Source of the DNA: Candidatus Zixiibacteriota bacterium
Lineage (GTDB): Bacteria > Zixibacteria > MSB-5A5 > UBA10806 > 4484-95
Length of the DNA: 34,876 nt
NCBI GenBank assembly: GCA_029932605.1
Contig: JAOZPT010000023.1
Span: 1 to 34,876 of the forward strand
Reading direction: 5' to 3'
This document shows, piece after piece, positions 6,732 to 31,114 of the stretch (its first letter is position 1; each line of letters opens with the position of its first letter). Made by a program: the position numbers and the translations under genes. Under the pieces are notes generated by a model. That model did no database searches, was not told the origin of the DNA, and was given only the letters and a program-made list of their open reading frames with translations.

Positions 6732-7496
6732 ATGGTTCAGGCGCTGGGTATAACTAAAATATTTGATGGCAAAAAGCGGGGTAAGATTGTTGCAACGGAT
6801 AATGTAACATTCGAGGTTTCACCTGGTGAGATATTCGGTTTGTTGGGTTTAAACGGTGCTGGCAAAACCACAACTCTCCGTTGCCTGGCTGCCATATTAA
6901 AACCGAACTCGGGAACAGCTTTTATCTGCGGAATAGACATCAGAAAACATCCCGAGAAAGCCAAAGCTAAGATCGGGTTTTTAACCGGTTCCACTGGCCT
7001 TTACGGAAGACTTAAAACATGTGAAATAATAAAATATTTCGGACAACTCTATGGTTTATCTGAAACCGAGGTTTCCGATAGGACACATCATCTGATGGAT
7101 ATCCTTAATATAACTGAATACGCTAATATACCATGCGATAAACTCTCATCCGGCACCAAACAGAAAGTCTCCATCGCCCGGACTATGGTCCATGATCCAT
7201 CGGTGCTCATTCTTGATGAACCTACAGCAGGGCTTGATGTAATAACCAGCAGAGCTTTAGTCGAATTCATTAATTTTGAAAAATCTCGGTCGAAAACGAT
7301 TATATTCTCAACTCATGTCATGCACGAGGCTGAAAAGTTATGCGACCGAATAGGGATTATCCACAAAGGTAAGATAATTGCCATTGGTACCCCCGATGAA
7401 TTGAAAAGCCGAACGTCCACAGATGATATGGATGATGCCTTTATTAAATTGGTCGGGGATAACAGAGAAGATACAGACGATGCTGTCACATATTAA
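6732..7496 (+). CDS. natA: ABC exporter ATP-binding subunit, NatA-like (Na+ efflux family)
   Basis: Walker A GLNGAGKTT, LSSGTKQK signature, ILDEPTAGLD, H-loop STH. Confidence 0.85.
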   Translation: MVQALGITKIFDGKKRGKIVATDNVTFEVSPGEIFGLLGLNGAGKTTTLRCLAAILKPNSGTAFICGIDIRKHPEKAKAKIGFLTGSTGLYGRLKTCEIIKYFGQLYGLSETEVSDRTHHLMDILNITEYANIPCDKLSSGTKQKVSIARTMVHDPSVLILDEPTAGLDVITSRALVEFINFEKSRSKTIIFSTHVMHEAEKLCDRIGIIHKGKIIAIGTPDELKSRTSTDDMDDAFIKLVGDNREDTDDAVTY

Positions 7497-8667
7497 AATT
7501 ATATACAAAAAAGAGCTTTTAGATACTGTTCGTGATAGGCGCACTATAATTTCAATGATCGTTGTCCCTATTTTACTATTTCCCCTTTTGACAATTGGTT
7601 TCTCCTCGTTTACCGTAAGCATGATTGAAAAATCAGCAGAGGAGGTTCACAAGGTTAGCGTGATAGGAAAAGATTATGCACCTGACCTTTTTACCATGGT
7701 GGATACTTCTTCGAAAATAGAGATAGTTGAAATCGATTCACTGGAAAAGGCCATCAATGATAAAAAAATCCGAGCGGCGCTCGTTATCCCCGAAGGTTTT
7801 TCGAAGAAACTGCTGGCGATGGATTCGACATTTGTCACCATACTTTTCAATGCTACCGAGGCTAAATCAGAATTCGCCGCGGATAAACTTTATAATATAG
7901 CAGTTGAGTTTCGACAGCAGATTTTATCCCAGCGGATTAATGAAAAAAAATTGAACCCACAGATAATAAAACCGTTTAAAATCAAACGAGATAATGTAGC
8001 CAAAGAGAAGATGGGGTCGTTTTTGCTGTCGATGATTTTACCTTATATCATAATTATATTAAGCATGGTAGGTGCCATGTATACAGCCATTGACCTAACA
8101 GCAGGTGAAAAAGAAAGGGGAACTTTGGAAACGATATTGGCCAGCCCTGTTCCCCGCTGGCAGATTGCTACCGCCAAATTCTTAACCATACTTACCACCT
8201 CGGTAGTCTCAACCATACTCGCTTTGGCAAGTATGACAATCACGATGGCCTACGGCATAATGTTGACTAAGGCTTTTGTTGAAAACTTCGCCTTCAAAAT
8301 CACTCCCCAGATGTTTTTAATAATATTCTTGATGATGATTCCTACAGCTTGCTTATTCTCCGCCCTCCTGATGACCGTTTCCATCTTTGCAAAAAGTTAT
8401 AAAGAGGCTCAAAGTTATATCTCTCCTTTGATGATAATCATAATTCTGCCGGCTTTGGTATCTTTTATACCAGGCGTTGAGCTCAATTTGGAACTGGCAT
8501 TTGTCCCTCTTGTCAATATATGTTTGAGTATCAGAGAAGCTCTTATGGGTAATATTAACTGGCTATATATAACTATCATATTTATTTCAACAGTCCTGTA
8601 TGCCGCATTGGCGATATTTGTTACTCACAGGATGTTTGAAAAAGAAGGAGTTTTATTCCGAACGTGA
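7480..8667 (+). CDS. natB: ABC-2 permease, NatB-like
   Basis: IYKKELLDTVRDRRT and AIDLTAGEKERGTLETILASPV motifs; start moved to ATG 7480. Confidence 0.88.
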   Translation: MLSHIKIIYKKELLDTVRDRRTIISMIVVPILLFPLLTIGFSSFTVSMIEKSAEEVHKVSVIGKDYAPDLFTMVDTSSKIEIVEIDSLEKAINDKKIRAALVIPEGFSKKLLAMDSTFVTILFNATEAKSEFAADKLYNIAVEFRQQILSQRINEKKLNPQIIKPFKIKRDNVAKEKMGSFLLSMILPYIIIILSMVGAMYTAIDLTAGEKERGTLETILASPVPRWQIATAKFLTILTTSVVSTILALASMTITMAYGIMLTKAFVENFAFKITPQMFLIIFLMMIPTACLFSALLMTVSIFAKSYKEAQSYISPLMIIIILPALVSFIPGVELNLELAFVPLVNICLSIREALMGNINWLYITIIFISTVLYAALAIFVTHRMFEKEGVLFRT

Positions 8668-10694: not shown

Positions 10695-11096
10695 TCATTT
10701 TCTTTTCTTGAGCTTTTCCTCTGATTCTTTATTATCCGTGGTCTTCCGTTTGGAAACTTTCACCTTCTGGGGCTTTTTCTCCGGTGATTTTAAACGTTTG
10801 GATTTATTGGAGATTTTATCTCTTTTCACCTCTGGAGGCCGGCGACGCTTGATATTGTCATTAATGCCATCGCCGTTGGAATCGATAAATCTGTCCTTTT
10901 TAACAACCGGAACCCTTTTATCTAAAGATGGCTGGGTTATCTTTGCTTTCTGCTGATCCTTGGTTTTTTTAACGACCTTCTCTGTTTTTTGGGATTTGGT
11001 GGAGTCTTTGCTTTTTGGCACTTTTTTAACCGCCAGAACCTCGGCACCTCCAAAAGCGATAAACATCACCAGCACCAGTGTTACCACCTTCTTCAT
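10695..11096 (-). CDS. Exported Lys-rich protein with a DxNGDGIND Ca2+-binding-type loop
   Basis: Signal peptide MKKVVTLVLVMFIAFGGAEVLA; FIDSNGDGIND; ATGA coupling to the upstream gene. Confidence 0.75.
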   Translation of the reverse strand: MKKVVTLVLVMFIAFGGAEVLAVKKVPKSKDSTKSQKTEKVVKKTKDQQKAKITQPSLDKRVPVVKKDRFIDSNGDGINDNIKRRRPPEVKRDKISNKSKRLKSPEKKPQKVKVSKRKTTDNKESEEKLKKRK

Positions 11097-12511
11097 CTCT
11101 TACCTCTCTTTCCCGGGGTTCTCCAATTAGATTTTGTTACATTTCTTTTAACAGAAGGTGTACCAATCGATCGATTAGAATTATTCCGGGTGCTTTTCTT
11201 TATATGTTCTGGATTTGTTGCCTTTGGTTGTTTTTTCCCTATCGACTTCGAGTTTGATTTTACTTTTTTATCATTTTTGATAGTTTTATTCTTAGAACTT
11301 TTAACATCATGTGATTGCTTGGATTTTTTATTTATTTGTCTACTTTTTTTTATCTTTTTACTTGTGTCTTTAGATTTTTTGCTAATACCGGTATCATGCC
11401 GTTTATCGATAACAGGTTTCCTTTTGAGCTTATCACTTGATGAATCGTAACGCTGGCGTGTAAGCTTTGAACCGGTAGTCTTAGGTGGCTTCTCCGGGCT
11501 TGCTGTCTGGCGTATCTCGTGCTTACTTGAATATTTCTGCGTTATCCGGGATGGAGGATGTTTGTACTTTTTGGAATGTTTAACCGGATGCTTAACCACG
11601 TCTCGTATGAAGTCAGGTTCATTTCGGTATTTTTTCTGCTTAAACTTCCAGTGTTTAAATTTGGAGCGTCCATAATCAAAATCCCGAAACCTGCGTTTTA
11701 TCTTGGCATCGACATAATATCTCTGACCATGCCTGATATAGATGTAATCCTGCCAGCAGGGATAGCCGTTATAGTATAACCAGACCCAATGATGACCTAT
11801 ATAAATTGAAGGAATTAGAATAGGTGCAATACCATAATAACAACCATCGATCCAGACCTCAGCGTATGGGAAATTACAACCGATCCAGATTGAACTCATA
11901 TAATATGGATCGATTTGCCAGTAACGGTACCAGCGATGATGACGATAACTGTCATCGATATAGAACATGGTGCTGGCCATCACATAGGGTCCATTAACTA
12001 TGCGATCATTCAGACGAGAGACGAAAACATCCCGTTCTCCACTCATTGTGTGGATAAAGTCATCGTAGTAGTAATCCCAATCGCCGTATTCATAGAACTC
12101 ATAGCGAATGAAGTCGGGCGATTCGATGTAATCATAACTGGCTACCGCATATATGAATTCTTTTCCTCTTGGACCGGTTACCTCAAGACGGTAGTCGTCG
12201 TAAGTATCGGGTATTCGATAAACCTCACCACCGCGAACATAACAATCACCATCATATTCTTCGGGGTAAAGAAGACTTACATTACCGGCCGGATCGATAT
12301 CATAAACAACCATGTAGCAGTCATCCGAGGCTCGAAAATATATCGCCACATCCTCGCCAAAATAATATGTCGCGCCATCACCCTTGTTAACCCAGATATC
12401 GATATCCAGAGCGTTTACCCTGTTGATACCGGTGTGGTTCTCAGCAGAAGATACAACCGGAAGAACCACTATAATAACTACCACCATCATCGAATACAAA
12501 TACTTACGCAT
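11093..12511 (-). CDS. Exported DUF4384-like + PEGA-like protein with a basic disordered tail
   Basis: Signal peptide; IDIWVNKG..Y..GEDVAIYF...YDIDPAGNVSLLYP...GKEFIYAVAS (DUF4384-like); AEVWIDG..YGIAP (PEGA-like); long K/S/R-rich C-terminus; AGGTGG RBS before ATG 12511. Confidence 0.8.
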   Translation of the reverse strand: MRKYLYSMMVVVIIVVLPVVSSAENHTGINRVNALDIDIWVNKGDGATYYFGEDVAIYFRASDDCYMVVYDIDPAGNVSLLYPEEYDGDCYVRGGEVYRIPDTYDDYRLEVTGPRGKEFIYAVASYDYIESPDFIRYEFYEYGDWDYYYDDFIHTMSGERDVFVSRLNDRIVNGPYVMASTMFYIDDSYRHHRWYRYWQIDPYYMSSIWIGCNFPYAEVWIDGCYYGIAPILIPSIYIGHHWVWLYYNGYPCWQDYIYIRHGQRYYVDAKIKRRFRDFDYGRSKFKHWKFKQKKYRNEPDFIRDVVKHPVKHSKKYKHPPSRITQKYSSKHEIRQTASPEKPPKTTGSKLTRQRYDSSSDKLKRKPVIDKRHDTGISKKSKDTSKKIKKSRQINKKSKQSHDVKSSKNKTIKNDKKVKSNSKSIGKKQPKATNPEHIKKSTRNNSNRSIGTPSVKRNVTKSNWRTPGKRGKR

Positions 12512-12529
12512 GACAATCACCACCTATAC

Positions 12530-12922
12530 TTATTTCCCTCTTCGGGGTTTCTTCCCCTCTTCTTCGGGGGAATGTTTCTTTTTATGTTTAGCTTCATCTT
12601 TTGACTTTCTATTCTTTTTATATTTTTCCCTATATTCCCTATCTTCCTTCTGTCTCTCCCTGACAATCTTGCGATCATATTTTTTATAGACATAATCTGC
12701 ATGCTTCGCATTTCTACGCTTGTAATAATAACCGTCTCCAACAACTCTAAAGACATAATAATCGCAATTTGTATAAACCCTCACCCACCGGGGACGATGA
12801 TGGCAATCATAGCAGTATGCCGGAGCATACCGTGGCCTGTGCCAGAAAGCGATATAAGTCACACAGCTGGTAGATGCCAAAGCAAAAACCGTTATCAGTA
12901 ATATTAAAATCCATCTTCTCAC
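12530..12922 (-). CDS. Small basic predicted lipoprotein with a CxxCH motif
   Basis: GGAGGGG RBS, GTG start, hydrophobic leader ending ASTSC, CYDCH, K/R/E-rich tail. Confidence 0.75.
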   Translation of the reverse strand: MRRWILILLITVFALASTSCVTYIAFWHRPRYAPAYCYDCHHRPRWVRVYTNCDYYVFRVVGDGYYYKRRNAKHADYVYKKYDRKIVRERQKEDREYREKYKKNRKSKDEAKHKKKHSPEEEGKKPRRGK

Positions 12923-12933
12923 TTTATCCCCTC

Positions 12934-13773
12934 CTAATTATCCTGCACTATCGTTTCAACGTGTTTGGGCATTCCGGGAACAATCTTTAATTCACGATTA
13001 CCAGGATCGATTTGATAAGCCCAAGCAAATTCCATAGCTGGTACATCATAATCAAAAAACAGGTCGGTTACCCAGACACGGGCATAATGCCACTCACCAA
13101 AATGCCGTAATTTAAGCACATACATATGCCCCTCAATTGCCTCAATACTATTAAATCCAGACCAACCATCAGGAGGTGCATAGCCAACATCATCGAAATC
13201 ATCTGCATAACCGAAATCCTGGATATAATAATCCTCAAACCTTACATTTATAAAAAACGCTTCAAGTAAAACATCGTAATCGAGGTAAATATCGCAATCT
13301 TCAGAATCCCATCGAACAACTTCACCGAGATAAAGATCAAACCCGGAGTAATTTGGCTCATAATAATAATCATAAATTACCTCATCAAAACCTTCAGGAC
13401 GAGGAGTGTCCATGGCAAACGCTTCACTTAAATCAGATTCATTCCCGGATTCATCATAAGCTGATAACCTGTAATAATAAGTATTACCATTAATAACTTC
13501 GGTATCAACCCAATCGGTATCGGGGTGACTGATATCTGCTTTCAATGTAAATGTCCCTGTTTCAGAAGTATTACGATATACGAGATAGCCATCTATGTCA
13601 TCCACCTCAACCGGGTGCCAGTAAATATAAACCGCTTCATCAGCTGTAACTGAGGTGATTCCCGAAGGAGGAGGTGGGTATTCATCTAAATACACATATT
13701 CAGTGGTAGTTTTCTCACAGCCAGCAACGAAAATTAAACCTGCCAATAATCCTAAAATCACTAACTTTCTCAC
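12934..13773 (-). CDS. Acidic lipoprotein with a fibronectin type III domain
   Basis: AAGGAGG RBS + GTG 13773; lipobox VAGC; Fn3 pattern PPPPSGI...W...GYLVYR...YYYRLSAYDESGNES. Confidence 0.85.
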   Translation of the reverse strand: MRKLVILGLLAGLIFVAGCEKTTTEYVYLDEYPPPPSGITSVTADEAVYIYWHPVEVDDIDGYLVYRNTSETGTFTLKADISHPDTDWVDTEVINGNTYYYRLSAYDESGNESDLSEAFAMDTPRPEGFDEVIYDYYYEPNYSGFDLYLGEVVRWDSEDCDIYLDYDVLLEAFFINVRFEDYYIQDFGYADDFDDVGYAPPDGWSGFNSIEAIEGHMYVLKLRHFGEWHYARVWVTDLFFDYDVPAMEFAWAYQIDPGNRELKIVPGMPKHVETIVQDN

Positions 13774-13821
13774 AAGAGCCTCCTTCTTTAAAAGCAATTT
13801 CCCTCGTTCATACTAATATCA

Positions 13822-13838
13822 ATCAATATCCATGCCAA
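13822..13838 (-). promoter_or_regulatory. Sigma54 (-24/-12) promoter TTGGCATGGATATTGAT
   Basis: Matches YTGGCACGNNNNTTGCW with correct spacing; -12 GC replaced by GA; adjacent to a sigma54 activator gene. Confidence 0.75.
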
Positions 13839-13905
13839 AATAATGATGTAACTATCCTCCCGTCTTACAATCAGTTGCAATTTACATAAAAAGCCCACCC
13901 GCTTT

Positions 13906-13949
13906 AAATGCACAAATATTGTTCAATTTTCCCACTCGTTTGTGCATTT
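13906..13949. promoter_or_regulatory. Tandem enhancer (UAS) sites for an NtrC-family activator
   Basis: TGCACAAATATTGTTCA (13909-13925) and TCCCACTCGTTTGTGCA (13930-13946), 21 bp apart, resembling NtrC TGCACCA-N3-TGGTGCA; outer arms form a perfect 11-bp inverted repeat. Confidence 0.7.
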
Positions 13950-14047
13950 CGTTCTTTTTAAAAAATTAGATTATACACTCCTTTCTTTAAGTTAATAACA
14001 TTACCAAGTTTTCTATTCACTTTATTTACTTAGAACAAAATATATCT

Positions 14048-15397
14048 TCACAAAGATTTGTTTATCCCATATTGTTTCATTTTAAGGCGCAGGGTATTTC
14101 GATGAATTCCCAGAAGCTCAGCTGCCTTTATCAATTGTCCTTTGGTTCTTTGCAGTGCTTCAATAATCGCCTTTTTTTCAAGTGTGGTTAAGTTGAGATT
14201 TTCAGACAGAATGGCAGAACCTCCCGATGAGACTTTAAACGCCTCTAAACTTTCGCTATCAATAGCCCCTGTTCTGGTTAGCACAACCGCCCTCTCAATA
14301 GTGTTTTCCAGCTCCCGGACATTGCCCGGCCATCTATGTGAAAGCAAAAGATCCTTTGCCTGCGGGGTAATACCCTCAATCTTCTTTCCGACCTTGTTAG
14401 AAAATTTATCTATAAAATAATTAACCAACGGTAAAATGTCCTCTTTTCTCTCCCTGAGAGGTGGGAGATTGATAGGTATGACGTTTAATCGATAATACAG
14501 GTCCTCTCGGAAACTACCATCTTTGACCTTAGACTCGATATCTCGATTGGTAGCGGTTACCAGACGAATATCGACCTTTATATTCTCAGAACCACCAAGG
14601 CGTTCAAACGATTTTGTTTCCAGGACTCGCAGAAGTTTTATCTGCATGGGAAGTGATATATCACCGATTTCGTCGAGAAAAATGGTTCCTTTATGGGCAA
14701 GCTCAAACCGCCCTATACGCCTTCTAACAGCACCTGTAAAAGCTCCTTTCTCATATCCAAAAAGTTCTGACTCAAGGAGGGGTTCTGGTAATGCAGCACA
14801 ATTAACGGCTAAGAACGGTTTATCTCTTCGGTTTGAGCTTGAATGTATCGCCCGAGCCACAAGCTCTTTACCCGTTCCCGACTCTCCCTTTATAAACACC
14901 GTAGAATCAGTTTTGGCGATAACCGATATATCGGAAAGCATCTTTTTAAAAACAGGAGATTGACCGATAAACTCAGGAAAACTCTCAACGGTTTCAAGTT
15001 TCCGGCGAAGGTAGCGATTTTCGGCAACCAGCCTATGGCTCTTTTCTACTTTTTTAAGAATTATATCCAATTGCTCAAGTTTCACTGGTTTTATCAGGTA
15101 ATCGGTAGCCCCCGCTTTCATAGCCTCAACAGCATCCTCGATGGAACCATAAGCAGTGATAACCACCACCTCCATATCCGGATAGATTTTCTTAATTTTT
15201 TTAAGCAGGGTTAAACCATCCATCTCCGGCATGCGCATATCTGTAATTGCTACTTCAGCACCCTCCCTTTTTAACAGTTCTAAAGCTATGAGACCAGATG
15301 AAGCTTCCCTGACCATATGTTTTTGTTTCTTCAGATATCCACCAAGCAGATGACGTTGGTTTTGTTGGTCATCGATAACTATAATTCGCACACTCAC
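14048..15397 (-). CDS. Sigma54-dependent response regulator (REC-AAA+-Fis HTH; ZraR/AtoC/NtrC family)
   Basis: TDMRMP receiver, GESGTGKE, ESELFGYEKGAFTGA, WPGNVRELEN, AAELLGIHRNTL. Confidence 0.97.
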   Translation of the reverse strand: MSVRIIVIDDQQNQRHLLGGYLKKQKHMVREASSGLIALELLKREGAEVAITDMRMPEMDGLTLLKKIKKIYPDMEVVVITAYGSIEDAVEAMKAGATDYLIKPVKLEQLDIILKKVEKSHRLVAENRYLRRKLETVESFPEFIGQSPVFKKMLSDISVIAKTDSTVFIKGESGTGKELVARAIHSSSNRRDKPFLAVNCAALPEPLLESELFGYEKGAFTGAVRRRIGRFELAHKGTIFLDEIGDISLPMQIKLLRVLETKSFERLGGSENIKVDIRLVTATNRDIESKVKDGSFREDLYYRLNVIPINLPPLRERKEDILPLVNYFIDKFSNKVGKKIEGITPQAKDLLLSHRWPGNVRELENTIERAVVLTRTGAIDSESLEAFKVSSGGSAILSENLNLTTLEKKAIIEALQRTKGQLIKAAELLGIHRNTLRLKMKQYGINKSL

Positions 15398-17433
15398 CTC
15401 ATAACAGGTATGGTTAAAATAAACTTAGTCGGGCCACCAATTTTTGACTCAACTCTTAAATCACCACCATGGTCAACGGCTATCCTATGGGCAGTGGCCA
15501 ATCCCAGACCGGTTCCTCCCGGTTTATCAGTGTAAAACGGTTTAAACAGATTTCGTTGTTGTTGATCTGAGATACCCGGTCCATCGTCGCTTACAACCAA
15601 CACCATTCGCCGGACGTCATTACCGGAACCGTCAAACTCAAACATAGTTGAAACCTCTATATGGCCATTTTCCCCAATCGCTTCGATTGCGTTCTTAATA
15701 AGATTGGATAAAACCCCTTTTATGGCTTCTTTATCTATTCGCACTTTTCCATTTGCCACTTTCGTTTTTATCTCTATAGAACGAGCGCTGGCTTCGTACT
15801 TATAAAGCGAAACCACCTCCTCTATAACTTGTTTTATATTAGCTTCCTGAAATTCCAACTTACCGCTTTTAGCCACCTGCAGTATTTTCTCAACGATCAT
15901 ATCAAGGTTCCTGTGCTCAGAATTTAATGTAGCTAAAAACTCATCGAATTCCTCTCGGCCGGATTCTACTTTTATTTCACTACCAAGCCTCTGGATAATC
16001 ATCCCGATGGAGTTAAGGGGGTTTCTTATTTCATGAGCCAGACCGGCCGCTACAGTACCCAATTCCGAAAGGCGCTGAGCTTGTTGTGCCTGGCGTTCCA
16101 AAGCCCGTCTTCTTGATATATCATGGGCAACAACGATAACACCGGTTGGTTTACCTTCCGCATTAAACAAAGGATTGGTTGATACCAGGAGATTCATGGG
16201 ACCAGAACTGCCTATTATCTGAGTTTCAAAGCTTTTAGATTTTTTCTCCTTTAATACGGATTTTACCATAAAGGGGTCACCCGGGAAATAATGGTCGTAA
16301 CTCCACGTTTTCGGTTCGCCATCGGGGAGGCCAAAATTTTTTCTGGCTGATACATTGGCGGTAATTATCTGCAGTTTTTCATCAGTTGATAATACTATTC
16401 CAGCAATAGAATCATGTAAAGAACGTGAAATAGCTCTGGCTCTACCAAGAGCGCTTTCCATAATACTCAAATTTTGATAACCGGCAAATATCCCAAAACC
16501 TACTATTCCCAGAACAACCAATAATATGACAAACAGCCAGACCTGTTTCTGAAAGTTGGCTGTAAGCTGGCGGTATCCATAAAGAGAAAGGCCAACCCTG
16601 AACAAACCAAAAAACTCTCCACCCGAGTTGAATGTCTGCACCACTTCAAGTACTTTCCTATCTTGGAAACTGACGGTGCGATAAAGAGCGCTATCGGCCT
16701 CAAGCGCTTTCGCCAGAAATGGATCATCCTCAATACGGTCCATCTGTGAAACCTGTTTGGAGGCAAAGACAATACCATCGTAATTTTGCAATACGATATA
16801 TTCGACACCCACCTCCAATGAAAGTTGATTTAGAAGGTATGCCAACGACAACTTACGGTCAGCATACTGACCCACAGTCCAGGGATAAACAATAAGGATA
16901 AAAGTATCGCCTTTATATGGTAAAAGACCAAATAAAAACCTCCTATCTTGAATAAAATAAAAATCATAAATTATATCAAATGGCTGGTCAATCTGGACGT
17001 TTTCTAAAAAATACGTCTGCAGGCTGTCAAGAATTCCTGATATGTTACGGGGTTCGGTCTCCATTTTATGGATAACGGATTTTCCGCGGTCGTAGATGGA
17101 TGCCCGTATAAGCCCAAGCTTTGCCACCAACGTTTCCAGGAAATCGGGCTCGTTTTCATAGACCTGACTTGCGATAGTTAGTTCGATTTCAGATACAATT
17201 TCATCAACCGCTATATCAGTAATCTGACGGTCAGTTGTGATTATATTCGATGCCGAGGCGACAAGTACCGTTGTCAATGCTCTTCCCTGCTGAACAATAC
17301 CGGCCAGTGTAGCTTTTCTACCCGCTCGCACCGAAAAGTAACCAGCGGCAATAAGTATTACAATCAGGAGAATAAACGACGCCAGGACATAACGTAGCTT
17401 AAGGCCGAAAAATATCTTTAACCTGCGATTCAC
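15394..17433 (-). CDS. Membrane sensor histidine kinase (periplasmic domain, PAS-like, HisKA, HATPase), ZraS/HydH-like
   Basis: Two TM helices, LAHEIRNPL, NLIKNAIEA, DDGPGI, GTGLGLA; start uncertain among 17439/17436/17433. Confidence 0.93.
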   Translation of the reverse strand: MNRRLKIFFGLKLRYVLASFILLIVILIAAGYFSVRAGRKATLAGIVQQGRALTTVLVASASNIITTDRQITDIAVDEIVSEIELTIASQVYENEPDFLETLVAKLGLIRASIYDRGKSVIHKMETEPRNISGILDSLQTYFLENVQIDQPFDIIYDFYFIQDRRFLFGLLPYKGDTFILIVYPWTVGQYADRKLSLAYLLNQLSLEVGVEYIVLQNYDGIVFASKQVSQMDRIEDDPFLAKALEADSALYRTVSFQDRKVLEVVQTFNSGGEFFGLFRVGLSLYGYRQLTANFQKQVWLFVILLVVLGIVGFGIFAGYQNLSIMESALGRARAISRSLHDSIAGIVLSTDEKLQIITANVSARKNFGLPDGEPKTWSYDHYFPGDPFMVKSVLKEKKSKSFETQIIGSSGPMNLLVSTNPLFNAEGKPTGVIVVAHDISRRRALERQAQQAQRLSELGTVAAGLAHEIRNPLNSIGMIIQRLGSEIKVESGREEFDEFLATLNSEHRNLDMIVEKILQVAKSGKLEFQEANIKQVIEEVVSLYKYEASARSIEIKTKVANGKVRIDKEAIKGVLSNLIKNAIEAIGENGHIEVSTMFEFDGSGNDVRRMVLVVSDDGPGISDQQQRNLFKPFYTDKPGGTGLGLATAHRIAVDHGGDLRVESKIGGPTKFILTIPVMR

Positions 17434-17439
17434 CACCAA

Positions 17440-17469
17440 ATGATAATATCAGTTTATGTTATGTGTCAA
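17440..17469 (-). promoter_or_regulatory. Sigma70 promoter TTGACA-N18-TATCAT, 6 nt before GTG 17433
   Basis: Read directly on the minus strand. Confidence 0.6.
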
Positions 17470-25678: not shown

Positions 25679-26505
25679 TGCCTAGAGAATATATCGACCT
25701 TCATATTCATTCCAATGCCTCGGATGGTTTGTTATCCCCGCTTGAGATTGTAGAATTAGCGATGAAAAAGCATCTAAAAGCAATTGCCATAACCGATCAT
25801 GATACTACCGATGGTTTTGTTGAGGCTGTGGATTACGCAAATAAAAATGGTCTGGAACTGGTTGCCGGTGTCGAGTTGTCCTGTATGTATATGGATAATG
25901 ATGTTCATTTACTCGGATATTTAATCGATTACAGGAATCCCGAGTTTGTTAAAATAATCAAAAAATTCAGGCAGGAGAGATATGAGCGGGGAGAAGCGAT
26001 GGTAACTAAATTAAACGAACTGGGAATCAACATCAGGATGGATACGGTTACCGCCATCGCCGGTAAAGGTGCGTTAGGCCGTCCGCATCTTGCCGATGCC
26101 TTGGTAAAGGAGGAATTTGTACATACTTATGATGAAGCATTCGCTCGCTATATCGGATACCATGCTCCTGCCTATGTGCCCAAAATGAATCTTAATGTCG
26201 ACCATGCGATCGACCTTGTCCACCTTGTTAATGGGGTAGCAGTGCTGGCTCATCCGGGAACATTAAGGCATGATGAGTATATCGCGGATTTTGTTGATAT
26301 GGGTCTAGATGGAATAGAGGCTTACCATCATTTACATAATCGTAAAATGGTTGAACATTATAAAAGCATTGCTGAAAAATATGACCTCGTTTACACCGGT
26401 GGCTCGGATTGCCATGGGCCAAGAAAGGGGAAGATATTGATTGGAACGGTAAAAGTCCCTTATAAATGCCTGGAAAATTTAAAACGGGTTGTTAAATCAA
26501 GATGA
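25678..26505 (+). CDS. PHP-domain metallophosphoesterase (YciV/TrpH-like)
   Basis: DLHIHSNASDG, ITDHD, GVELS, GRPHLA, LAHP, GGSDCHG. Confidence 0.92.
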   Translation: MPREYIDLHIHSNASDGLLSPLEIVELAMKKHLKAIAITDHDTTDGFVEAVDYANKNGLELVAGVELSCMYMDNDVHLLGYLIDYRNPEFVKIIKKFRQERYERGEAMVTKLNELGINIRMDTVTAIAGKGALGRPHLADALVKEEFVHTYDEAFARYIGYHAPAYVPKMNLNVDHAIDLVHLVNGVAVLAHPGTLRHDEYIADFVDMGLDGIEAYHHLHNRKMVEHYKSIAEKYDLVYTGGSDCHGPRKGKILIGTVKVPYKCLENLKRVVKSR

Positions 26506-28598
26506 AAAAATTATATGCAATAATGATAATCTTGTTATTTTTAACCATTGGCCGATGTCTTGCAGGAGATGCTGTTTCGTCAAAGGCTCAAATAGAAGAT
26601 TTAATAAAGCAGATTGAAGCTTTAAAAAGTGGCCAATTCGTAGAAGGATTTGTTACCTCCGAGGGTATAGGCCATAAATGTGGCACTCATCTGTTCTTAG
26701 GGTTGTTGAGCGTTAAAGACCAGATAGAACCTTCTATATTGGAAAAGCTTTTAGCCCGGCCTGAAAGGCAGACATATATAGACACCCAGCATTTCCGGAT
26801 ACATTATGATACAACAGGAACACATGCTCCATATCAGGTTGATATTGATGTCGATCCCGCCGATAACATTCCCGATTATATAAATCGCACCGCTGAGATT
26901 TTTGAGTATGTATGGTCATTTGAAATTGACACGTTAATGTATCCGGCTCCACCATCTGATGACTCTGCCGGTGGCGATTCAAGGTATGACGTTTATGTCT
27001 CCAACGTTGGAGGTGCAGGTTATTACGGATTAACCCAGCCTGAAACTCAACTTGACTCGACTAGATATACCAGCTATATCGAGGTTGAAAATGATTATGC
27101 AGAGGTCGGTTATGGCAGTAATCCGATAGTTGGATTGAGCGTAACCGCTGCCCACGAGTTTTTCCATTCTATACATTTCGGTCTTGATTTTAACGAAAGG
27201 GATGGTGTTTATCCAAATGATAAACCATGGTGGTATGAGGTTACCGCGGTCTGGATGGAGGATGTGGTTTTTGACGAGGTTGATGATTATAAGCTGTTTG
27301 TTCATTACTTTTATGATTATCCCTGGTTGGGGCTTGGAAGTTTTTCCAGAAGCTTAAGTGATGTTCCCCGAATGATGCATCCATATGCCTCCTGTGTATG
27401 GGCAAGGTTTCTTCATGAGAGATTCGATCGGGATATCATCCGGCAGATATGGATTGAGTGTAGCCGTGTTGCCGGTTATAACGTTCTGCCTGCTACCGAT
27501 TATGTGCTGTCAGGTTATGGTTCATCGTTTGAGGAGGCTTTTTTGGAGTTTACCAGCTGGAATTTCTTTACCGGTGAACGTGCTGATACGGTCGATAAGT
27601 TTTCAGAGGCGGATGAATGGCCTGATATCAGTATCAGGTTTTACACTGAGGCTACTCCTTCTTTATATCCGGTTGGCGATACGTTTACCAGCGACGATCT
27701 TGTTCCAGAACCCCTTGGCGCAAATTACCATGTTTATCGAACCTGGCCATCATATATAGGAGGTTTACAATTTGACTTTAATGGTGAAGATATATATACC
27801 GGTAACAACTGGTTAGTAGGTGTGCTTGGTTGGGACCCAGCCTCGGATACTCTTGAGAATTTTTATATCGATGTTATCGGTGAGGGCACTTTGAGTTTCC
27901 GCGATTGGGGAAGGTATGATTACTTAGTTGTCATTCCCACTGTTTTTGGCTTTGTTCCAGGTTATAGCTCGTACGGGTATTCGTTTCTTACAAATTATGA
28001 CGAAAACCTTGTGGGTAATGCCCCGCTGTTTGGCGAGTTGCCCTCTGATACAACTGTTAAAGCTACAAAGTGTGTGAATATACAACTCTATGCTACCGAT
28101 CTTCAGGGGGATGCTATATGGTTTTCGAGCGATACACTTGAGGGTTTATCTTTATTAGACAACGGCAATGGAACTGCAATATTGACATATTGTCCAAAAA
28201 TGGAGATGGTAGGTTTCTCTGTTCCTGTAAGAGTCGAAGCCCATGATACCTCGGGTTACGACGCCAAGCAGATAGTATTTTATGTTGTTTCGCCGACTGA
28301 CGAGGTTTTCGCTAATATGTTCCCCAATCCTATTATCTATGAGGATGGTAACCCTATTACGTTGCAATATTTCTTGCCGGATACTATAAATGCTGGTGAC
28401 CTCGATATTCGGATATTCAGCGTTGCCGGGGAACTGATTTATAAATTTGCAGATTTATCTCAATTCAACTCGGGCTTCCATGAAATACCCTGGAATGGTC
28501 TCAACAGCAAGGGCAATCAACTGGCTGGTGGGGTTTATATTATCAAGGTCAGGGCTGGCAAAAAGTCTGGTTCAGGCAAGTTTGCAATCATCAGGTAA
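26502..28598 (+). CDS. Secreted HExxH zinc metalloprotease (MXAN_6640-like) with a C-terminal FlgD-Ig/T9SS-type domain
   Basis: Signal peptide, KCGT, HFRIHY, TAAHEFFHSIH, WYEVTAVWMED; FPNP...IRIFSVAGELI...WNG...GVYIIKV. Confidence 0.85.
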   Translation: MKKLYAIMIILLFLTIGRCLAGDAVSSKAQIEDLIKQIEALKSGQFVEGFVTSEGIGHKCGTHLFLGLLSVKDQIEPSILEKLLARPERQTYIDTQHFRIHYDTTGTHAPYQVDIDVDPADNIPDYINRTAEIFEYVWSFEIDTLMYPAPPSDDSAGGDSRYDVYVSNVGGAGYYGLTQPETQLDSTRYTSYIEVENDYAEVGYGSNPIVGLSVTAAHEFFHSIHFGLDFNERDGVYPNDKPWWYEVTAVWMEDVVFDEVDDYKLFVHYFYDYPWLGLGSFSRSLSDVPRMMHPYASCVWARFLHERFDRDIIRQIWIECSRVAGYNVLPATDYVLSGYGSSFEEAFLEFTSWNFFTGERADTVDKFSEADEWPDISIRFYTEATPSLYPVGDTFTSDDLVPEPLGANYHVYRTWPSYIGGLQFDFNGEDIYTGNNWLVGVLGWDPASDTLENFYIDVIGEGTLSFRDWGRYDYLVVIPTVFGFVPGYSSYGYSFLTNYDENLVGNAPLFGELPSDTTVKATKCVNIQLYATDLQGDAIWFSSDTLEGLSLLDNGNGTAILTYCPKMEMVGFSVPVRVEAHDTSGYDAKQIVFYVVSPTDEVFANMFPNPIIYEDGNPITLQYFLPDTINAGDLDIRIFSVAGELIYKFADLSQFNSGFHEIPWNGLNSKGNQLAGGVYIIKVRAGKKSGSGKFAIIR

Positions 28599-28616
28599 GC
28601 CAAAGGGGTTTAACAT

Positions 28617-29159
28617 TTGGATTTTAGAACCCGAAGGATAGCGGCCGCTGGCCTTTTCGCCGCTTTAGCCATAGCTATAAATTTTCCTCTCTTAGGTGTT
28701 CCCAATGTTGAGTTTTTCAGTCTTTGCCTGTTTATTTCAGGAGTGTTTCTTCGTATCTGGGGTGGCTTTGTAGTGCCGTTGGTTGCCGGTTCAGTTTTTA
28801 TAATATTAAACCCCAATGGTCCGCCAACGCTGTTTGCGGTGGCGATTGCCCAGATTATTGGGTTTGTCCTTTTTGGTTTGGCGGGTGCACTTTTTGGTAG
28901 AAGTATTTTGAAGAATAAAAGTCGTTTGCTCGGTTTAGTGCTTTTAGCCACTGTCGGGATTGTGCTAACCTTTATCTATGACCTTTTGACCAATGCCGCT
29001 TTTGCTGTTACAATTGGGCCATTCTGGCCAACCATTATCGGCGGTATCGGTTTTTCTATTTGGCATATAGTATCAAATGGTTTGATATTTGGACTTTTTG
29101 AACCTCTATTAGTGAAATTATGGTATATAGCAAGTCCTCGCTTGTATCAGTCCTTATAA
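28617..29159 (+). CDS. ECF transporter S-component-like membrane protein
   Basis: 180 aa, about 6 TM, RRIAAAGLFAALAIA (AxxxA) first helix, PNVE loop, HIVSN near the C-terminus. Confidence 0.75.
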   Translation: MDFRTRRIAAAGLFAALAIAINFPLLGVPNVEFFSLCLFISGVFLRIWGGFVVPLVAGSVFIILNPNGPPTLFAVAIAQIIGFVLFGLAGALFGRSILKNKSRLLGLVLLATVGIVLTFIYDLLTNAAFAVTIGPFWPTIIGGIGFSIWHIVSNGLIFGLFEPLLVKLWYIASPRLYQSL

Positions 29160-31114
29160 TACTGTTTTGCCTGAGCGGTTACACATTCGGTCAGAAACTC
29201 TTAAGGGCCGATGCTGAACCGGTCGATTCGGTGTTATCTGATTCGACTGCCACCGTTGATACATCTGAGGTAATGCCCAAAGATACCCTGATGTTTGAGG
29301 TTGATTCATTGCAATATGGTAATATTGATTCGGTCGTTGTTGAAAATGTAACCATAGTCCCAGACACTCATCTTAAACCATACTATCATACATACAGGCT
29401 TGGTCGGAGTTATGGTGATTATTTGAATTATACTACCGGTGTTTTTTCTCTTAAACACGGTGCAGTTGGTCAACCGGAGCTGTTGGTGAAATCTGTTTTA
29501 CTTGGTGGTCTAGGTGCTATTTATAATGGAGTACCCGTTTTTCACCAGGGTTTTTATTTCCCTTTTCGCAGGGGTATGGATTTGAATGCGCTGATGTTTG
29601 AGAATGTATCACGGATTGATATTACACCGTTATCATATCTCGATATATATTCCCAGGGGCAGGTGTTGTCTTTAAGGAGTATGGTCTGGCCAGCCATCGA
29701 TAATCCCTCGAGTATATCAGTTGCTCAAAAACCGTATGGCTATTCAAGATCTGCCTGGCGTTTCTCGCGATGGTTTTGTCGCAACATAGCTGCTACATTT
29801 ACTGCGGGTTTCAAAGAGTCCCGGGGTTATTACCAGAGTGGGACCGACTATGACGGTTTTGGTGTATCCGGTTCTTTTGCTTACCAGCCGAAACCTAACG
29901 GTGAAATTATTTATACTTTTTACCAGGGTAAGGCTAAAAAGGGGATTTTACAATTTGACAGGGTTATTGCTCCATCTTTGCGGGTTAATAATGTTCTTAA
30001 TCATCATAATCTGAAAGGGAGATACAAACCATCAAGGAATTGCCAATTTGAAATAGACCTCTTCCACCAGAAGAATTACAGTCATCTTTTTGATGATGCT
30101 AATTATCATCATCGGATAAGGGATTTTATCTGGGGAGGTAAGGCAGTTGTTTCTTTAAGTGGTTCGGCTCACAATCTTAAGGCCGAAGCGGGTGGTCGGA
30201 GACATCATATAGGTGGTTTAGAATCTGATGCGGCAAGTTCGGTTACCATGGGGATAGTAATTAGCGATTCAATGGTTATCAGCAACAAAGAGGAACTGAT
30301 GATCTCAGCAAGGGTAAGAAAAAATAACATCAACGATTTTAATATTGCTGGAACAGGTCGTTATTTGCATAGCCTGAACAACCGAACGAATATGAACCTA
30401 TCAGCGGGCTATCTTGATTGTTTACCTGATATTTACAGTATGTATTTCAATTATCCCACCATAAGCATGGAAGTTACAGACCTTTATGAATCCTACAATT
30501 TCCGTCCTGATGCTACAATTAAACCCTGTAAAATTATGTTCGCCACAGCTGGATTTGATATCAGTTTCAATGATAAGTTTTCTCTTTTTACAAACATTTC
30601 CTATGAAAAAGTTGACAATGATATAATATGTGTGACGGAGGATTCATCTGCGGTATGGTATACCACTCCGAAAAACATTGATTATGACAGGTTCACTTAT
30701 ATCGCAATCCTTAATTATTCTGTTACGAAATATTTTAAAGGTTCTTCCGGGATAACATATTTTATTTATGACCCCGGCAGTCCTCTACCGGGGATTAAAC
30801 ATTCTCCTAAAGGCATAGCATATTCCAGAGGTGCGCTGATATTTAAAGAGGTGCTGAAAGATTTAGACATATCAGGAGTTTACCAGTGTCGTTATATAAG
30901 TCCAAGGGAATATTATGGTTTTATTGTTGATTCGTATGAACCGGCAGTAGTTTTTGATGGGGCTATAGTGGTTCGTTTTGGTACTTTTGAGTTTAGGCTT
31001 ATTGAGGACAATATCTTGGATTATTTCATTGATAATAAATATAATATGTGGGGTGAGTATATAATGCCTCCAGGTTCGGTGTGGTGGCAACTCACCTGGA
31101 ATTTTACGAACTAA
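29120..31114 (+). CDS. Outer-membrane beta-barrel with a TonB-dependent-receptor plug-like domain
   Basis: Signal peptide; plug-like YNGVPV...MDLNALMFENVSRIDI; amphipathic strands; terminal WWQLTWNF. Confidence 0.7.
   Translation: MVYSKSSLVSVLIILFCLSGYTFGQKLLRADAEPVDSVLSDSTATVDTSEVMPKDTLMFEVDSLQYGNIDSVVVENVTIVPDTHLKPYYHTYRLGRSYGDYLNYTTGVFSLKHGAVGQPELLVKSVLLGGLGAIYNGVPVFHQGFYFPFRRGMDLNALMFENVSRIDITPLSYLDIYSQGQVLSLRSMVWPAIDNPSSISVAQKPYGYSRSAWRFSRWFCRNIAATFTAGFKESRGYYQSGTDYDGFGVSGSFAYQPKPNGEIIYTFYQGKAKKGILQFDRVIAPSLRVNNVLNHHNLKGRYKPSRNCQFEIDLFHQKNYSHLFDDANYHHRIRDFIWGGKAVVSLSGSAHNLKAEAGGRRHHIGGLESDAASSVTMGIVISDSMVISNKEELMISARVRKNNINDFNIAGTGRYLHSLNNRTNMNLSAGYLDCLPDIYSMYFNYPTISMEVTDLYESYNFRPDATIKPCKIMFATAGFDISFNDKFSLFTNISYEKVDNDIICVTEDSSAVWYTTPKNIDYDRFTYIAILNYSVTKYFKGSSGITYFIYDPGSPLPGIKHSPKGIAYSRGALIFKEVLKDLDISGVYQCRYISPREYYGFIVDSYEPAVVFDGAIVVRFGTFEFRLIEDNILDYFIDNKYNMWGEYIMPPGSVWWQLTWNFTN

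Follow-up and report, generated by a model that had tools for sequence, protein, structure and literature searches.

The window analysed here comprises 34,876 nucleotides of contig JAOZPT010000023.1 from a Candidatus Zixiibacteriota bacterium (assembly GCA_029932605.1; the genome that carries the window is called G000 below, and C-numbers are its contigs). Between positions 10,695 and 17,469 it holds six open reading frames, all co-directional on the minus strand, which encode a sensor histidine kinase, a sigma54 enhancer-binding response regulator and four exported proteins, A to D. An NtrC-like activator box and a predicted sigma54 promoter precede gene A, and the same box heads a second operon, of barrel genes, on contig C61. 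The first-pass annotation, made from the window alone, had described the six genes as a self-contained, ZraSR-like regulon for envelope or metal stress. The present analysis bears out an operon of exported proteins that is conserved and sigma54-driven, the adjacent activator being its most likely driver, and supports a role in the envelope. It does not support the term 'self-contained', because the box also heads the C61 operon and the regulator lies inside the fetched locus in only 32 of 57 loci. We tentatively read the two operons as an inducible regulon for upkeep of the outer membrane.

The first operon and its control region

Other G-numbers denote relatives of G000 and L-numbers denote loci; own order is the taxonomic order of G000, class is likely Zixibacteria, and the taxon titles of relatives are as deposited. 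A full-length orthologue of gene A (E ≤ 1.1e-25) was found in 57 of 60 relatives, and the three genomes without a match are 69–88% complete. All 57 orthologous loci and two paralogue loci were collected with about 6 kb on either side of A; loci that ended at a contig edge or were too short were dropped (two for C and B, seven for D). Synteny of the six genes, proposed earlier as a check, holds for C, which follows A in 54 of 55 evaluable orthologous loci, and for D, present in 50 of 50. It breaks down for B, found in only 9 of 55 relatives' loci, so that the four exported proteins are not the unit they were taken for, and for the regulator, which is directly upstream of A in 19 of 57 loci; the kinase is inside the fetched stretch in 24 of 57. 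Since the kinase is single-copy class-wide (its sensor region in 60 of 61 genomes, one of these in two pieces) and the order of A, C and D is kept, the core consists of kinase, regulator, A, C and D, with B optional, and the link between them does not depend on adjacency. Divergent A paralogues at L073 (G038:C72) and L074 (G046:C50) lack C, D, promoter and box. Beyond these relatives, a scan of GTDB genomes found 448 stretches that encode an A relative. Among the best 80 of the 448, the closest titled relatives are Zixibacteria-labelled; the top three share 51–56% identity, one of them being titled only 'uncultured bacterium'. Further relatives appear under WOR-3, TA06, KSB1, Calditrichaeota and Cloacimonadota titles.

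The predicted -24/-12 promoter (TTGGCATGGATATTGAT; 13822–13838, minus strand) has the correct spacing, and a sigma54 site was found by scan upstream of A in 54 of 57 orthologous loci and in neither of the two paralogue loci; of the three misses, two were located by eye and the third by pattern. The tandem upstream activating sites annotated at 13909–13946 are in the sequence. The proximal box (13909–13925) is an NtrC-like palindrome, TGAACAATATTTGTGCA when read on the minus strand; it lies upstream of the -24 element, at a distance of about 88 bp. The distal box, 21 bp from the proximal one, is partial, with a TGCACAA half site (13930–13946, minus strand). Own-order loci have their box at about -88 as well, usually with a half site 21–22 bp upstream. 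The matrix built from these regions has the consensus CGCACAATAATTGTGCG, and at least 11 of its 14 positions were matched in 47 of 55 promoter regions (mean 0.43 and maximum 3 in 100 shuffles); trained without the window, it still ranks the window box as the best site in G000. A box of at least 17 bits was also found in 33 of 42 loci chosen by title as outside the class. The predicted sigma54 promoter and NtrC-like box are conserved class-wide and in WOR-3- and TA06-titled genomes. The spacer was searched with the consensus of integration host factor (IHF). The IHF-like site reported at 13865–13877 is present, its window copy being weak, with two mismatches; sites with at most one mismatch are enriched in the same spacer of relatives (21 of 55, against a mean of 5.3 and a maximum of 13 in 200 shuffles). 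The related genomes are not independent, so the box, IHF and conservation counts overstate significance. Three loci (L167, L187 and L190) have an unusual geometry for sigma54 activation: the box is separated from the -24 element by only some 34 bp, and the -12 element there is degenerate (TTTCA). In four KSB1/Calditrichaeota-type loci (L200, L212, L222 and L233), flagellar genes (flagellin, FliS, FlgM, FlgN or FliW) precede the A–C pair; the sigma54 promoter is kept in three of the four and the box in none.

The promoter annotated in the window is present and conserved, and its -12 element reads TTGA instead of TTGC (GA for GC), which the first-pass annotation had not remarked. This position is A or T (GA or GT) in 18 of 18 own-order loci and C (GC) in 31 of 36 others. 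The -12 C is reported to be 96% conserved, and its loss to correlate with low-level activator bypass by a mutant sigma54 (PMC4551910). A class-wide change of sigma54 specificity was rejected, because in 23 of 23 own-order loci the operon-2 promoter retains a canonical -12 GC. The lost C may, speculatively, raise the basal level of operon 1, and its lineage-wide loss at one of two co-regulated promoters offers a natural test of sigma54 promoter tuning.

The kinase (681 amino acids; 15394–17439, minus strand) has Pfam PAS, HisKA and HATPase domains, two membrane spans predicted from hydropathy and a periplasmic Cache-like sensor, which matches sCache_3_2 in 14 and dCache_3 in 10 of 27 orthologues; compared with PDB sequences, the sensor gave nothing significant (best E 0.09). 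The regulator (449 amino acids; 14048–15397, minus strand) has receiver, sigma54-activator and Fis-type HTH_8 domains by Pfam and NCBIfam, a GAFTGA motif and the recognition helix LGIHRNTL, which bears out the pair as annotated. A sigma70-type promoter-like sequence (TTGACA, 18 nt, TATCAT; 17440–17469, minus strand) stands before the pair. Of 30 loci, 28 could be evaluated upstream of the kinase, and none of these has a sigma54 site or box above 7 bits there; autoregulation is thus not indicated. The -10 of the sigma70-type sequence abuts the TTG start of the kinase; the message may be leaderless or the true start may be further downstream.

The window regulator very probably reads the box, with IHF-assisted looping, as the recognition helices strongly suggest. 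G000 has rpoN and 14 strong sigma54-activator domains among 19 matches, and only the window's regulator among these 14 has the HRNTL helix. The form LG[IL]HRN[TS][LI] is present in 32 of 32 regulator tails from the collected loci. Four outside genomes retain the box, and in all four the best activator match has LG[IL]HRNTL; in G066, which has A without a box, the helix was seen in none of the five tails viewed of 35 matches, which lends weak support. We regard it as highly improbable that another activator reads the box, be it a nitrogen regulator or a second G000 activator on C98, and that the adjacent pair is merely a neighbour. The C98 protein has a similar helix (SRNTL), a point that weighs against our assignment, as do the modest number of loci with the regulator directly upstream of A and the two positions at which the box differs from that of Escherichia coli NtrC (PMC8743547). 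Yet linkage of regulator and operon recurs in many families, the HRNTL helix accompanies the box in those outside genomes, and no box of at least 9 bits was found on C87 (glutamine-synthetase-type motif). A box-like site on C98 was rejected as a regulatory site since it sits within a coding region.

A second operon under the same box

G000 has 202 promoter-like sites. Scored with matrices built without the window, only two of them, the window's and the one on C61, have a box above 4 bits. The C61 site (7467–7569) combines a second promoter with a box at -89. The first gene after it encodes a YjbH-like barrel (C61:6520–7413), and a FadL-family (BamG/FadL-like) barrel gene follows (C61:4981–6249). 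In relatives, a lipoprotein with a GCYT motif, a Tyr/Trp-rich core and a basic tail sits between the two barrels. G000 retains a signal-peptide remnant of it (C61:6250–6519; L079), and the gene is kept in most own-order relatives examined; 7 of 21 operon-2 lipoproteins have CxxCH. The lipoprotein and gene B were not called homologues, because their alignment is confined to the signal peptide. The arrangement of box, promoter and gene seen on C61 recurs, with a canonical -12, in 23 of 23 own-order genomes examined, and the YjbH-like barrel is present in 60 of 61 genomes. In 20 genomes of other families, lipoprotein and barrel follow the YjbH-like gene in nine, and promoter and box are present in seven of those nine. 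A Calditrichaeota-titled genome also holds a lipoprotein–barrel pair of the operon-2 type. The YjbH-like barrel, the operon-2 lipoprotein and the G066 barrel gave nothing significant against PDB sequences, and a homologue search with the G066 lipoprotein returned three matches without an informative name.

When fixed patterns were run over 61 genomes, the matches numbered 47 and 16, whereas the reversed control yielded 1 and 0. The 63 sites stand before A in 37 cases, before the YjbH-like gene in 23 and before pairs of predicted outer-membrane protein (OMP) barrels in two (G010 and G045, with weak Pfam OMP matches in three of the four genes); the remaining one is at the edge of a contig. Five outside genomes were searched as well, and in one of them, WOR-3-titled, another site precedes a protein with a signal peptide that we read as a barrel and that has no family match. 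No cytoplasmic or enzymatic product was found among the box targets seen. All targets being exported as far as seen, the regulon appears to be small, split and made only of exported products. Similar predicted OMP barrel pairs were seen after D at L023 (G009) and at L240:2567–4095 and L363:75–1409, standing after D or under a box promoter of their own. Elsewhere in G000, its strongest sigma54 promoter (C13:26145, minus strand) stands before a C-rich short stretch and has no box (best -2.1 bits).

Products of the two operons and their possible role

Gene A (12934–13773, minus strand), whose start is most likely GTG 13773 behind AAGGAGG and not TTG 13797, encodes a predicted surface lipoprotein with an Fn3 stalk and a small HmuY-like C-terminal domain, as judged from orthologues, a structure model and a fold search. 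The acidic Fn3 lipoprotein of the first-pass annotation stands: the Fn3 domain is present and 55 D+E face 13 K+R, with no Pfam match in the library scan. At least two acidic residues follow the lipoprotein Cys in 38 of 51 A orthologues, and such residues serve as a criterion for surface export in PMC12578637. A fold search with whole A gave almost only Fn3 matches, so the C-terminal domain (about 140 amino acids) had to be folded alone (pLDDT 95). It then matched HmuY-type and DUF4466 proteins (3h8t, 8b6a, 6r2h, 6eu8 and 4ei0) with Z scores of 9.5–11.6, root-mean-square deviations of 2.8–3.4 over 118–130 residues and 7–19% identity. Of 48,161 chains compared, the seven best (Z 7.5–11.6) are HmuY-type or DUF4466 proteins or a related Bacteroides lipoprotein; the next, unrelated chain has a Z of 5.9. 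The predicted fold is HmuY-like. By sequence, Pfam HmuY matches weakly in 23 of 71 members of the domain family (E ≤ 0.1, best 2.1e-4) and not in the window's domain, a profile of the C-terminal domain gave nothing significant against PDB sequences, and an Atlas search with it gave only leads below 0.9; the profile finds 694 clusters at 50% identity. L041:5887–6462 and L044:5835–6419 are second, shorter genes with the HmuY-like domain alone, between A and C.

The descriptions of the other three products were confirmed. Gene B (12530–12922, minus strand) encodes a small predicted lipoprotein with YCYDCH and a basic tail (34 K+R, 15 D+E); it has no Pfam or NCBIfam family match, and CxxCH is kept in 10 of 10 sequences aligned. 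Gene C (11093–12523, minus strand; its start may be ATG 12511) encodes an exported DUF4384–PEGA protein by Pfam, with a Tyr/Trp-rich segment and a long basic low-complexity tail (56 K+R, 13 D+E). It gave nothing significant against PDB sequences, and in five WOR-3-, TA06- or Cloacimonadota-titled loci viewed it is split into a Tyr/Trp-rich protein and a DUF4384–PEGA protein. A complex prediction for A and C scored 0.00, gave no verdict and is not used as evidence. Gene D (10695–11096, minus strand) encodes an exported basic low-complexity protein (41 K+R, 15 D+E; DxNGDG present; no Pfam match). Its alignment has one conserved acidic loop, D-x-F-x-D-x-[DN]-x-[DN]-G-[IV]-[DN]-D, which is repeated five to seven times in six other-phylum loci and which we presume to bind calcium.

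It is quite possible, judging from these predicted products, that both operons act at the outer membrane. In the upkeep regulon that we tentatively propose, a constitutively made membrane kinase would sense a periplasmic cue and phosphorylate the sigma54 activator, which would bind the NtrC-like box and loop to sigma54 at two or three promoters. The products raised, namely surface lipoproteins, periplasmic basic-tailed proteins and barrels, would reinforce the outer membrane or help to assemble it. On this view, A would serve as an acidic scaffold at the surface and both barrels, the YjbH-like and the BamG/FadL-like one, as anchors for lipoprotein partners; the long polycationic tails carried by B, C, D and the operon-2 lipoprotein would hold on to anionic envelope polymers such as lipopolysaccharide.

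Several observations weigh against this proposal. The operon-2 lipoprotein is reduced to a remnant in G000 itself, 11 of the 20 other-family loci have the YjbH-like gene with neither box nor partners, and G053 has a separated lipoprotein–barrel pair with no box within about 750 bp. Nine of 42 outside-class loci, mostly KSB1/Calditrichaeota-type, have A without a box, and no chaperone, protease or core gene of the β-barrel assembly machinery (BAM) or Lpt pathway is under a box in the G000 box list. The HmuY and FadL folds would also fit uptake. The matches of the FadL-like barrel to BamG, given below, speak for the proposal; its low BamG score, its absence from some genomes and the lack of a BamH match for the operon-2 lipoprotein count against it.

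A regulon for ligand scavenging, in which the Cache sensor would detect a small hydrophobic molecule (porphyrin, lipid or similar), the HmuY-like head of A would capture it at the surface and the FadL-like barrel would import it, seems to us somewhat unlikely. It draws on the resemblance of the A domain to HmuY, BfrB, PinO and Tfo (Z 9.5–10.9), on the weak Pfam HmuY matches, on the Cache-like sensor and on the C61 barrel, which scores 52.2 bits on PF03349 (OMPP1/FadL) against a cut-off of 29.7; some HmuY proteins bind porphyrin without iron ligands (PMC12106395). The A domain, however, has about 140 residues compared with 176–200 in solved HmuY proteins, so its pocket loops are probably short, and it has two conserved His and no conserved Met, the two His probably lying at opposite hairpin ends to judge from the secondary-structure string. 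No TonB-dependent receptor, inner-membrane transporter or catabolic enzyme was found among the box targets seen, and in the window, the one locus scanned systematically for it, no TonB-dependent receptor lies among the genes that flank the operon. A, C and D also persist in genomes where the barrel was not found.

The polycationic tails would suit polyanion binding of another kind, in a surface-matrix or developmental programme like that of PrsK/PrsR with PEP-CTERM proteins, which would lay down a coat or exopolymer-anchoring layer upon a change of lifestyle and not upon damage. This reading is favoured by a weak match of the YjbH-like barrel to a family of exopolysaccharide export (E 3e-4, below cut-off), by the 436 bits of the regulator on the PEP-CTERM regulator model and by the position of the A–C pair after flagellar genes in the four loci mentioned above. 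But the regulator score is below the cut-off of 502.6, the YjbH match spans only about 90 of 658 profile positions, and no glycosyltransferase or polymer export operon was found among the box targets; we consider such a programme distinctly unlikely.

Less probable still is the ZraSR-type, metal-triggered stress response of the first-pass annotation, with the CxxCH and DxNGDG motifs binding metal. The layout of a sigma54 two-component system with exported targets is the same, CxxCH occurs in all B sequences aligned and in part of the operon-2 lipoproteins, and G000 has cytochrome c assembly genes. Against this, the window's periplasmic sensor has one His and no Cys, and none is conserved among orthologues, in which the membrane-proximal domain is what is conserved; the CxxCH motifs are dispensable, B being so rare. 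No autoregulation was seen, and no efflux system or metal transporter was found among the targets. No ZraP- or Spy-like chaperone was matched among them either, in agreement with the earlier remark that such an effector is lacking. Two adjacent genes at C78:15933–16825 have weak, sub-cut-off Metal_resist matches (PF13801, ZraP/Spy-like); they are not at a box site.

A more specific form of the outer-membrane reading, which we think unlikely, takes the C61 lipoprotein–barrel pair as a divergent BamH–BamG, and A, C, D and the YjbH-like barrel as inducible accessory subunits of a Zixibacteria/WOR-3 BAM canopy, the whole being an ancient sigma54 outer-membrane-assembly regulon of the Fibrobacterota–Chlorobiota–Bacteroidota (FCB) group. 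If true, it would give the FCB-type BAM machine a dedicated stress switch. The best NCBIfam match of the C61 barrel is BamG (NF053685), and it is the only match to that model in G000 at E ≤ 1e-8. The best PDB match of the FadL-like barrel profile is 9hiv_F (E 5.8e-8), a barrel chain of the Bacteroides BAM entry, which we take to be BamG. The BamG profile match starts at residue 43 of the C61 barrel, equal to profile position 23; the tail after the predicted signal peptide is similar in length to the N-terminal extension of about 10 residues in BamG and is itself unmatched. Opposed to this are the score of the C61 barrel (63 bits, against a BamG cut-off of 250), the best score over 61 genomes (92 bits, with none above the cut-off) and the lack of a PDB or NCBIfam sequence match between the operon-2 lipoprotein and BamH. 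Moreover, a search at 1e-30 did not find the FadL-like barrel in 12 of 61 genomes, of which several are 97–100% complete, and it was not found in three WOR-3- or Cloacimonadota-titled genomes either.

Elsewhere in the window, positions 437–1781 hold a row of an extracytoplasmic function sigma factor, a zinc-finger anti-sigma factor and a YbjQ gene, and positions 26502–31114 encode a FlgD-Ig/DUF6055-like protein, a 180-residue protein without assignment and a 664-residue protein with a weak OMP barrel match.

Comparison with known systems

The architecture is of a known kind; the set of box targets, the effectors and the cross-phylum reach were not found in the literature searched. No paper was found for Zixibacteria with sigma54, or for Zixibacteria with outer membrane, two-component system and regulon, in a search that left most subscription journals outside, and in the available text none of the literature on DUF4384 or on HmuY-like domains with Fn3 appeared to concern this operon. 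Regulation has hardly been mapped in candidate FCB phyla. The system described here offers a testable circuit of sensor, activator, box, promoter and two or three target operons, class-wide and, for operon 1, also in genomes titled as other phyla; it brings four unnamed protein families together in the context of the envelope and adds to the HmuY fold a minimal form that is fused to Fn3.

With ZraSR–ZraP (PMC4987338, PMC7657598) the system shares a membrane kinase, a GAFTGA sigma54 regulator and a regulon that is very small and has exported products. It is ZraSR-like in layout but falls outside that family by the other criteria applied: the regulator scores 429.2 bits on ZraR (cut-off 760) and the kinase 159.5 on ZraS (479), and the box resembles that of NtrC. 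ZraSR is autoregulated (PMC4987338), whereas the window pair shows no sign of this and its genes are not divergent. The kinase sensor here lacks conserved His or Cys, and the targets, spread over two or more operons, are lipoproteins and barrels with no ZraP-like protein among them.

AtoC gives the regulator its highest score (472.7, cut-off 714) and AtoS the kinase (243.2, cut-off 646), yet no ato catabolic genes were found among the box targets seen. The PEP-CTERM regulator model is likewise among the highest scores, which recalls PrsK/PrsR, although no PEP-CTERM cargo was found among those targets. NtrC scores 436.9 (cut-off 558.6), and like NtrB–NtrC the system has a tandem 17-bp TGCAC-N7-GTGCA palindrome upstream of a sigma54 promoter. 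NtrB is cytoplasmic, whereas the window kinase has a periplasmic sensor, and no nitrogen gene is under the box. The NtrC box of E. coli is TGCACCAnnnTGGTGCA, from which the present box differs at two inner positions, being AA/TT there (PMC8743547).

Gene A resembles HmuY and DUF4466 proteins in the predicted fold of its domain and in being a lipoprotein with acidic residues after the Cys; it differs in a domain about 40 residues shorter and fused to Fn3. Operon 2, finally, resembles BamG–BamH (PMC12611786, PMC12578637) in joining a FadL-family barrel to an adjacent lipoprotein gene. In Supplementary Table 1 of PMC12611786, which has no Zixibacteria entry, the locus numbers of bamG and bamH are consecutive in Ignavibacterium, Salinibacter, Fibrobacter, Gemmatimonas and Caldithrix. 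In Bacteroidota, BamG seems to be essential, in contrast to the C61 barrel with its absences, and the C61 barrel sits under a sigma54 activator box; if the pair is BamG–BamH-like, newly described accessory subunits of the FCB BAM would be linked to an inducible response.

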